A DNA stretch of 64,000 nucleotides from Escherichia coli (GCF_003334405.1 NZ_QOWM01000016.1), one strand, 5' to 3'. Counted from the first letter of the stretch, positions 10,918 through 12,097 are shown. Program-made: numbers and translations. Notes: generated from the letters alone by a model not told the origin.

Positions 10918-11346
10918 ATGGCTTATAAACACATTGGCGTGGCAATTTCCGGGAATGAAGAAGATGCCTTACTGGTGAATAAAGCCCTGGAGCTCGCCAG
11001 ACATAATGACGCTCACCTGACGTTAATTCATATTGATGATGGCTTAAGCGAGTTGTATCCGGGTATCTACTTCCCTGCAACAGAAGATATTCTTCAATTG
11101 TTGAAGAATAAGTCGGATAACAAGCTGTATAAACTGACGAAAAATATTCAATGGCCGAAGACAAAACTGCGTATTGAACGCGGAGAAATGCCGGAAACAC
11201 TGCTGGAAATTATGCAAAAAGAGCAGTGCGACCTCCTTGTCTGTGGTCATCATCACTCATTTATCAACCGTTTGATGCCGGCATATCGCGGGATGATCAA
11301 TAAGATGAGTGCGGATTTGCTCATCGTGCCGTTTATCGATAAGTAA
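10918..11346 (+). CDS. uspD: universal stress protein D
   Basis: ORF 142 aa [27 protein letters not shown]...; UspA-like fold; GGAG before the ATG. Confidence 0.92.
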
Positions 11347-11350
11347 CCGC

Positions 11351-12097
11351 TTACCAGTAATGCTCCGCTGTCATATGGCCCGGTCGGCGACGTAAATGTT
11401 TCGTCATCTGCCGGGTCTCTTTCAGCAACTGTTGTGTATCGCGCACCATCTGTGGATTGCCGCACAGCATCACATGGCTGGTTTCTTTATTCATCGGCAG
11501 GCCAATCGTGCTTTCCAGTTCCCCACTTTCAATTAATGCCGGTATCCGTCCGGTGAGCGACCCCGCTGCCGTTTCCCGACTGACCACCGTCTGAATGCGC
11601 AGTTTTCCTTCGTAGCGTTTTTCCAGTTCCTGCATCAGTGGCAAATAGCTTAAGTCGGCGGCATAACGTGCGGCGTGCACCAGGACCAGATTTTTGAAGC
11701 GATCTAAATCTTTACCTAGTTGCAGAATCGATAAATAAGGGCCAATCGCTGTACCGGTTGCCAGCATCCATAGCGTTTCGCAGTGCGGCACTTCATCGAG
11801 CACAAAGAATCCTGCCGCTTCGCTAACCACCTGCACTTCATCGCCTGGTTTCAGTGCCGCCAGTCGTGGGCTTAATTTGCCATCGGGGACGGTGACCAGG
11901 TAAAACTCCAGATCGGGATTATCGGGCGAGTTTACATAGGAGTAGGCGCGCTGGACGCGTTCGCCGTCGATTTCAAGGCCAAGCTTGGTAAATTGCCCGG
12001 CGGTAAACGGAAGCACGGGGGCGTGAACGGTGAGACTAAACAGGGCGTCGGTCCAGTTCTGCACTTTAGTGACTTTGCCTGTTACCCAATCAGCCAT
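11351..12097 (-). CDS. fpr: ferredoxin/flavodoxin-NADP+ reductase
   Basis: ORF 248 aa MADWVTGKVTKVQNWTDALFSLTVHAPV... Confidence 0.95.
   Translation of the reverse strand: MADWVTGKVTKVQNWTDALFSLTVHAPVLPFTAGQFTKLGLEIDGERVQRAYSYVNSPDNPDLEFYLVTVPDGKLSPRLAALKPGDEVQVVSEAAGFFVLDEVPHCETLWMLATGTAIGPYLSILQLGKDLDRFKNLVLVHAARYAADLSYLPLMQELEKRYEGKLRIQTVVSRETAAGSLTGRIPALIESGELESTIGLPMNKETSHVMLCGNPQMVRDTQQLLKETRQMTKHLRRRPGHMTAEHYW

Follow-up and report, generated by a model that had tools for sequence, protein, structure and literature searches.

How do two genes that face each other tail to tail, with almost no room between their stop codons, bring their transcripts to an end, and does the ending of one matter for the expression of the other? 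The question is raised by uspD and fpr in a 64,000-nt stretch of Escherichia coli DNA (GCF_003334405.1, NZ_QOWM01000016.1), which we call the window and to whose first letter all positions refer unless MG1655 is named. A sequence-only reading of the window had reported that the two stop codons are separated by 4 nt, that neither gene has a terminator there, that each transcript must extend antisense into its neighbour, and that the expression of such pairs may be reciprocally coupled, with frwD/yijO as a second example.

The 2-kb stretch around the junction is 100% identical to E. coli K-12 MG1655, and the fpr/uspD arrangement was found in 5425 of 5426 complete E. coli genomes. Open reading frames and the RefSeq annotation of MG1655 bear out the coordinates of both genes and their 4-nt spacing (Table 1), and the spacer is indeed too small for any terminator. 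A consensus scan detected no canonical intrinsic terminator at the uspD/fpr junction. Its nearest matches were the glpX terminator at 12152–12173 (−) and two weaker ones, at 10686–10710 (+, within yiiS) and 10986–11001 (−, within uspD). No Rfam match was found near 11200–11450, the region of the overlap. The small palindrome gtaa-ccgc-ttac across the junction was tried as a functional hairpin and rejected, with a folding energy of −3.3 kcal/mol and a z of −0.24 against shuffles. Because convergent TAA stops are reverse complements of each other, such a palindrome is mostly automatic: the TAA stops alone account for three of the four pairs, and the extra g/c pair has a 1-in-4 chance of arising. 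On the other side of fpr, the match at 12152–12173 (−) is a strong canonical intrinsic terminator between glpX and fpr, with a 9-bp stem and a T7 tail. It coincides with an end known from published Term-seq data (MG1655 4114522), and fpr is therefore transcribed apart from glpFKX.

Table 1. Positions of the features at the uspD/fpr junction and of related features elsewhere in the window
Feature	Position	Strand	Basis or remark
uspD CDS, universal stress protein D	10918–11346	+	TAA stop 11344–11346; ORF list, RefSeq MG1655 annotation
fpr CDS, ferredoxin/flavodoxin-NADP+ reductase	11351–12097	−	stop 11351–11353; ORF list, RefSeq annotation
Spacer CCGC, 4 nt, between the uspD and fpr stops	11347–11350		sequence
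uspD 3' UTR, 75 nt, antisense to the last 23 codons and stop of fpr	11347–11421	+	Term-seq
fpr 3' UTR, 126 nt, antisense to the last ~40 codons of uspD	11225–11350	−	Term-seq
Overlap of the two mature mRNAs, ~197 nt	11225–11421		derived from the two Term-seq ends
Centre of Rho termination region, uspD strand	11425 (MG1655 4113800)	+	Rho score 2.82, p = 1.2e-5 (Adams et al. 2021, Supplementary file 2)
Centre of Rho termination region, fpr strand	11201 (MG1655 4113576)	−	Rho score 3.65, p = 3e-18 (Adams et al. 2021, Supplementary file 2)
Stem-loop of 14 pairs, −22 kcal/mol, followed by UCUCUUUC	11377–11417	+	fold, z = −3.6
Weak imperfect stem-loop, its base at the fpr-strand 3' end	11225–11257	−	fold
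22-nt RNase III-type duplex, p19-captured	11369–11392		Huang et al. 2020, Table S3, entry 'fpr' (PMC7373196)
frwD CDS	44763–45104	+	TAG 45102–45104
yijO CDS	45091–45942	−	TAA 45091–45093
frwD/yijO CDS overlap, 14 nt	45091–45104		ORFs, annotation; published convergent excludon
oxyR (+)/sthA (−) CDS overlap, 18 nt	57015–57032		annotation
Rfam matches at gathering threshold: naRNA4, ES036 (twice), ClpQY promoter element, L31 leader, OxyS, btuB cobalamin riboswitch	1135–1212, 6217–6258, 19910–19967, 24579–24631, 25611–25652, 55910–56019, 61009–61198		

Both transcripts have defined 3' ends within the coding sequence of the partner. The ends were taken from the Term-seq table of Adams et al. 2021 (PMC7815308), in which the 3' end is base 51 of each 61-mer, and coordinates were converted as MG1655 = window + 4102375, calibrated on two of these 61-mers. 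The uspD-strand end (MG1655 4113796, +; window 11421) is of the 'antisense fpr' class and is listed with 1,131 reads on the LB OD 2.0 sheet only. The fpr-strand end (MG1655 4113600, −; window 11225), of the 'antisense uspD' class, is present on the LB 0.4, LB 2.0 and M63 sheets, with about 50,000 reads on each LB sheet (50,101 at OD 0.4 versus 50,738 at OD 2.0). Thus the proposed antisense extension of both transcripts is borne out, by ends lying 75 nt (uspD strand) and 126 nt (fpr strand) past the stops and by a duplex cut by RNase III, described below.

Rho termination regions, obtained in the same study from bicyclomycin DirectRNA-seq (PMC7815308), adjoin both ends. At 4113800 (+), reads upstream and downstream were 134/33 without bicyclomycin and 124/86 with it; at 4113576 (−), they were 179/62 and 585/739. 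Bicyclomycin thus raised readthrough 2.8-fold on the uspD strand, 4 nt past the end, and 3.7-fold on the fpr strand, 24 nt past the end. A rise in readthrough under Rho inhibition is expected of a Rho-dependent terminator, and it was seen on both strands. Given that the Rho scores are computed over 800-nt windows and from low counts (33–739 reads), they place a region, not a site. The claim that there is no terminator therefore holds for the 4-nt spacer but not beyond it, and as worded it is contradicted by the significant Rho regions at both ends (2.8 and 3.7) and by a stable hairpin before the uspD-side end; the transcripts terminate inside the neighbouring gene, with Rho.

The account that we favour, with a probability of about 0.65, is one of ordinary compact tail-to-tail packing: readthrough into the partner, Rho termination, trimming to a stem-loop, and a limited 3' overlap whose regulatory effect is probably small. 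Since the stop codons lie 4 nt apart, there is no intergenic terminator for uspD or fpr, and polymerase from each gene would run on past the stop codon and enter the 3' part of its neighbour. With the ribosome leaving at the stop, the RNA beyond it would be untranslated antisense RNA on which Rho could load, and Rho would stop transcription within roughly the next 100–200 nt; on the uspD strand, a weak intrinsic contribution of the hairpin and UCUCUUUC is possible. Exonucleases would next shorten the 3' tails as far as the first stem-loop that protects the RNA and leave the steady-state ends at 11421 (uspD) and 11225 (fpr), so that trimming is the probable source of the exact ends. When both genes are on, head-on encounters of polymerases would be expected together with sense/antisense pairing and RNase III cutting, and each gene could slightly dampen the other. 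In this account, the geometry, the hairpin, both 3' ends, their bicyclomycin sensitivity and one duplex come from the sequence or from published data, whereas the trimming and any effect on regulation are inferred. Rho reportedly suppresses antisense transcription (Peters et al. 2012), and the uspD and fpr RNAs past their stop codons, being untranslated antisense, resemble the transcripts suppressed in this way.

The uspD-strand end is well matched by a structure. The mapped end lies 4 nt past the 11377–11417 stem, within UCUCUUUC, a tail with 5 U in 8 nt; the stem-loop has a 9-nt loop and two internal mismatches, and the consensus scan did not call it as a terminator. Downstream of the end, C exceeds G (C/G of 1.41 over 11422–11600). 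In the Rho-dependent transcripts studied by Dar & Sorek 2018 (PMC6061677), the steady-state end is marked by a stable stem-loop that lacks a proper U tract; polymerase terminates beyond this point, and the RNA is cut back to the stem by PNPase and RNase II. The uspD-strand end is of this kind in that it is bicyclomycin-sensitive, directly follows a stable hairpin, lacks a strong U tract and has a mild excess of C over G downstream, and a hairpin before the end, a U-poor tract and C above G together make up the signature of Rho-dependent 3' ends of that study (PMC6061677). It differs in that its hairpin lies within the coding sequence of the partner and not in an intergenic region, and the structure on the fpr side is weak.

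The position of this hairpin within codons for a conserved peptide, LKETRQMTKHLRRRPGHM, brings in another explanation, namely that it forms, with UCUCUUUC, an intrinsic terminator for the converging gene that is embedded in the fpr coding sequence and was selected through the codon choice of fpr. We resampled the LKETRQMTKHLRRRPGHM codons according to local E. coli codon usage (3000 recodings), and the native + strand hairpin was more stable than 99.9% of the synonymous recodings (−22.0 versus −14.4 ± 2.5), while the fpr-sense strand was not unusual in the same test (8.6%). It was also the most stable and top-scoring structure in an antisense scan of the whole of fpr, and the recoding excess recurred in the other Escherichia sequences as well as in the two Klebsiella species, whose fpr faces yiiR. 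The position of the mapped end, 4 nt past the stem with 5 U among the next 8 bases, would also suit a terminator. Against such a device, the excess in the neighbouring register used for the scan was only z = −2.3, among 77 windows, and it was not significant in Salmonella, Kluyvera, Enterobacter or Kosakonia. The hairpin sequence is conserved across 10 enterobacterial sequences and was paired in 91% of cells, compared with 29–56% for slid controls, but its codons encode the conserved peptide, and covariation over these 10 sequences was not significant, with one double-sided change and with 68 of 500 shuffles matching the observed pairing. Moreover, the region was picked because the end maps there, and since stable ends are expected wherever the strongest hairpin falls, part of the hairpin signal is a selection effect. 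That the hairpin by itself does not terminate efficiently is shown by the Rho score of 2.8. Taken together, the recoding results are suggestive, and do not establish, that fpr codon choice helps to form the 3' end of the converging transcript, and we regard an embedded intrinsic terminator as somewhat unlikely. A bolder version would have the last ~18 codons of fpr selected to encode, in antisense, a 'guest' terminator or stabiliser, namely the hairpin that forms the 3' end of any converging transcript, be it that of uspD (Escherichia) or of yiiR (Klebsiella), in which case the uspD/fpr overlap might serve cross-control in superoxide stress; this we hold to be a long shot.

The fpr-strand end, with its ~50,000 reads, is less well explained than the uspD-strand end. 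The 66 nt at 11225–11290 fold into two hairpins on the fpr strand with −13.9 kcal/mol (z = −0.5), which is shuffle-like, and the structure at 11225 was no more stable than synonymous recodings. Downstream of the end, C/G is only 1.2. Since a CUCUUUUUG run at 11215–11223 (−) starts 3 nt downstream of this end, another origin is possible for it, for example weak intrinsic termination followed by nibbling, or endonucleolytic processing.

Overlapping 3' ends with a stable hairpin in the overlap are also what a terminator driven by colliding polymerases would present, in which converging polymerases pause at the hairpin and dislodge each other without Rho. The model locus for such a terminator, ynaJ-uspE (Wang et al. 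2022, bioRxiv 10.1101/2022.10.23.513370), is again a convergent pair with a usp gene. Ju et al. 2019 reportedly argue that many convergent pairs terminate by polymerase collision without Rho, and overlapping bidirectional terminators are described as Rho-independent, with one stem-loop between the genes. Unlike that class, uspD-fpr showed significant bicyclomycin-sensitive readthrough on both strands (Rho scores of 3.65 and 2.82) and had no single shared stem-loop between its ends. In contrast to the ynaJ-uspE type, the uspD-fpr ends lie 197 nt apart, within coding sequences and at two different structures that do not flank one stem-loop. In addition, uspD is weak in exponential phase, with no mapped end at LB 0.4, yet the fpr end is equally strong there. 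Termination by collision at this locus is thus very improbable in our view.

That the two transcripts meet as RNA is documented by a published duplex. Duplexes of 21–22 nt that p19 captured in vivo are compiled in Table S3 of Huang et al. 2020 (PMC7373196); they are perfectly paired, have overhangs of the RNase III type and exceed 1 RPM on each strand. The entry 'fpr' consists of UCAUAUGGCCCGGUCGGCGACG (502 reads) paired with UCGCCGACCGGGCCAUAUGACA (120 reads). Both match the window exactly, at 11371–11392 (+) and 11369–11390 (−), inside the overlap, and the captured duplex means that sense and antisense RNA from the uspD/fpr junction pair and are cut. Its abundance is low, at ~6 and 1.4 RPM, well under the cluster threshold of that study, which oxyR/sthA reaches.

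With opposite-strand tail-to-tail genes, mature transcripts that overlap by 197 nt and a low-abundance dsRNA processed by RNase III, uspD-fpr shares these features with convergent excludons, and it has been published as one. On opposing or mutually exclusive expression, which would also be expected of an excludon, the only hint is the fpr-end signal, and it points the other way, being equal at OD 0.4 and 2.0. ExcludonFinder (NAR 2025, PMC12288877) reports 165 convergent excludons of MG1655, by the criterion that the two transcripts overlap in half or more of 58 RNA-seq datasets; its Table 1 names uspD-fpr, frwD-yijO and oxyR-sthA, and overlapping terminators were predicted by TransTermHP for 146 of the 165 pairs. 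Between these excludons and the pair as described here there is no difference in kind; the uspD-fpr 3' ends, Rho dependence and duplex come from other published datasets. For excludon genes that are functionally linked, the same paper gives uspD and fpr as an example, the link being oxidative stress, and the idea of reciprocal coupling, proposed for the pair as a genome-scale inference, is thus already in print (PMC12288877). The uspD/fpr case as a whole is already known, through the dsRNA product (2020), the 3' ends (2021) and the listing as a convergent excludon (2025).

A stronger form of this idea is that the overlap is a selected device, by which strong transcription of one gene represses the other through collision and RNase III and makes their expression reciprocal or mutually exclusive. 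The singling out of this pair as functionally linked speaks for it (PMC12288877), and so do the 197-nt overlap, which is real, and the RNase III-type duplex captured from it. The tail-to-tail pair mscL-arfA of E. coli (PMC10070815) offers a related case, in which an antisense effect on expression was demonstrated experimentally. In both pairs, the 3' UTR of one gene shows complementarity to the 3' part of its partner's coding sequence; the effect on expression in mscL-arfA comes from experiment, whereas for uspD-fpr the overlap is known from transcript ends and a duplex. However, for this pair the device has been put forward at genome scale only, and p19 validation was not feasible for convergent pairs (PMC12288877). 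The fpr-end signal is equal at OD 0.4 and 2.0 even though the uspD end appears only at OD 2.0, and this, like the low abundance of the captured duplex, argues against strong coupling. Moreover, UspD protects against superoxide, and fpr is a member of the soxRS regulon; both proteins serve superoxide defence, so that mutual exclusion would be functionally odd. We consider such a device unlikely, and the comparison with other genomes bears on it as well.

The synteny of the locus was followed through Fpr orthologues and contig look-ups, leaving out a frameshifted locus from a low-quality assembly (L007) and a paralogous DUF406-Usp locus (L008/L009). The 4-nt spacing, a point in favour of a selected device, recurs in E. 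albertii, in a divergent genome of the E. coli clade, and in an Escherichia-like contig (L005) that is ~90% identical to K-12; the spacer reads CCGC in L005 and CTGC in E. albertii. Outside Escherichia, a segment of ~990 bp carrying yiiS and uspD (window ~10362–11352) is absent between yiiR and fpr (loci L010–L015). The gene that faces fpr in Salmonella, Kluyvera, Enterobacter, Kosakonia and Klebsiella is yiiR (DUF805), which fpr abuts or overlaps in five of the six genomes. The gap is 0 nt in Enterobacter asburiae, Kosakonia radicincitans, Klebsiella michiganensis and K. aerogenes, the two genes overlap by 10 nt in Kluyvera, and in Salmonella enterica 106 nt separate them (boundaries checked by BLAST). 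Among the sampled genomes, the presence of yiiS-uspD at the yiiR-fpr site looks specific to the Escherichia lineage. A search of contigs for UspD had two Escherichia loci among the matches listed, and a search for UspD homologues returned mostly E. coli fragments. Given that fpr is tight against different partners, the close spacing is a property of fpr and does not depend on two stress genes being paired. It follows that fpr tolerates or attracts an abutting convergent neighbour, which argues for generic compaction and against a design around two stress genes. The pairing with uspD is confined to Escherichia among the genomes sampled, a further point against a selected device.

A DUF406-Usp pair also occurs elsewhere. 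On a Salmonella-associated contig (L008, 1937–2684), a DUF406 (YiiS-like) gene stands next to a Usp gene whose product is 55% identical to UspD, and the pair is flanked by IS66-family and IS1 transposase genes, beside a TTc toxin-repeat gene. Such surroundings hint at a DUF406-Usp module of two genes that moves as a unit.

Generic compaction is also what the surrounding genome displays. The frwD/yijO overlap is as the sequence-only reading gave it, 14 nt at 45091–45104 by ORFs and annotation, and neither frwD nor yijO has a Term-seq end in the table of Adams et al. 2021 (PMC7815308). A third tight pair of the window, absent from that reading, is formed by oxyR (+), which ends at 57032, and sthA (−, 57015–58415). 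Here the sthA 3' end lies at MG1655 4159345 (window 56970), 45 nt into oxyR, and Rho regions are listed for either strand (Adams et al. 2021, PMC7815308). This end is preceded by a hairpin, GGCCATCC..GGATGGCC, and the pair has a p19 dsRNA cluster with the annotation 'Convergent' (Huang et al. 2020, PMC7373196).

The stop-to-stop gaps of the ten convergent CDS pairs in the window are 39, −18, −14, 26, 138, 60, 84, 4, 54 and 105 nt, and thus three of ten (4, −14 and −18 nt) do not exceed 4 nt. We found no usable genome-wide statistic of convergent gaps in the literature, and the annotation was therefore sampled directly, for 18 intact convergent pairs from three unrelated 50-kb stretches of the same genome (MG1655 record 100–150 kb, 900–950 kb and 1700–1750 kb; L016–L018). 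The gaps were 52, 11, 218, −4, 150 and 195 nt in one stretch, −14, 6, 31, 61, 50 and 43 nt in another, and −27, 272, 64, 12, 108 and 273 nt in the remaining one. Gaps of 4 nt or less were found in 3 of the 18 pairs (−4, −14 and −27 nt) and gaps of 12 nt or less in 6. A tight arrangement (≤4 nt) is thus the state of about one convergent pair in five or six, and by the counts in window and sample, tail-to-tail packing that leaves no space for a terminator between the genes is routine in the E. coli genome. The tightness of uspD/fpr is no more than expected by chance and is ordinary for E. coli.

All sampled pairs whose gap does not exceed 12 nt (yiaU-yiaV, mtlR-yibT, lysR-ygeA, galR-lysA, yegV-yegW and yegD-yegI) are on the excludon list. 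That list may largely mirror stop-to-stop distance.

For the question raised at the start, the observation made from the window is confirmed and its interpretation was partly right: the antisense extension is real, 'no terminator' was too strong, and the coupling is unproven. Apart from this correction, the count of how common tight convergent pairs are and the tie of the tightness to fpr, the result matters little beyond bookkeeping. The locus belongs to the E. coli reference genome. Should reciprocal control be demonstrated, the pair would become one more validated example in a class with few experiments at the level of single pairs. The other RNA elements of the window, the Rfam matches of Table 1, are all expected for this part of the K-12 chromosome.
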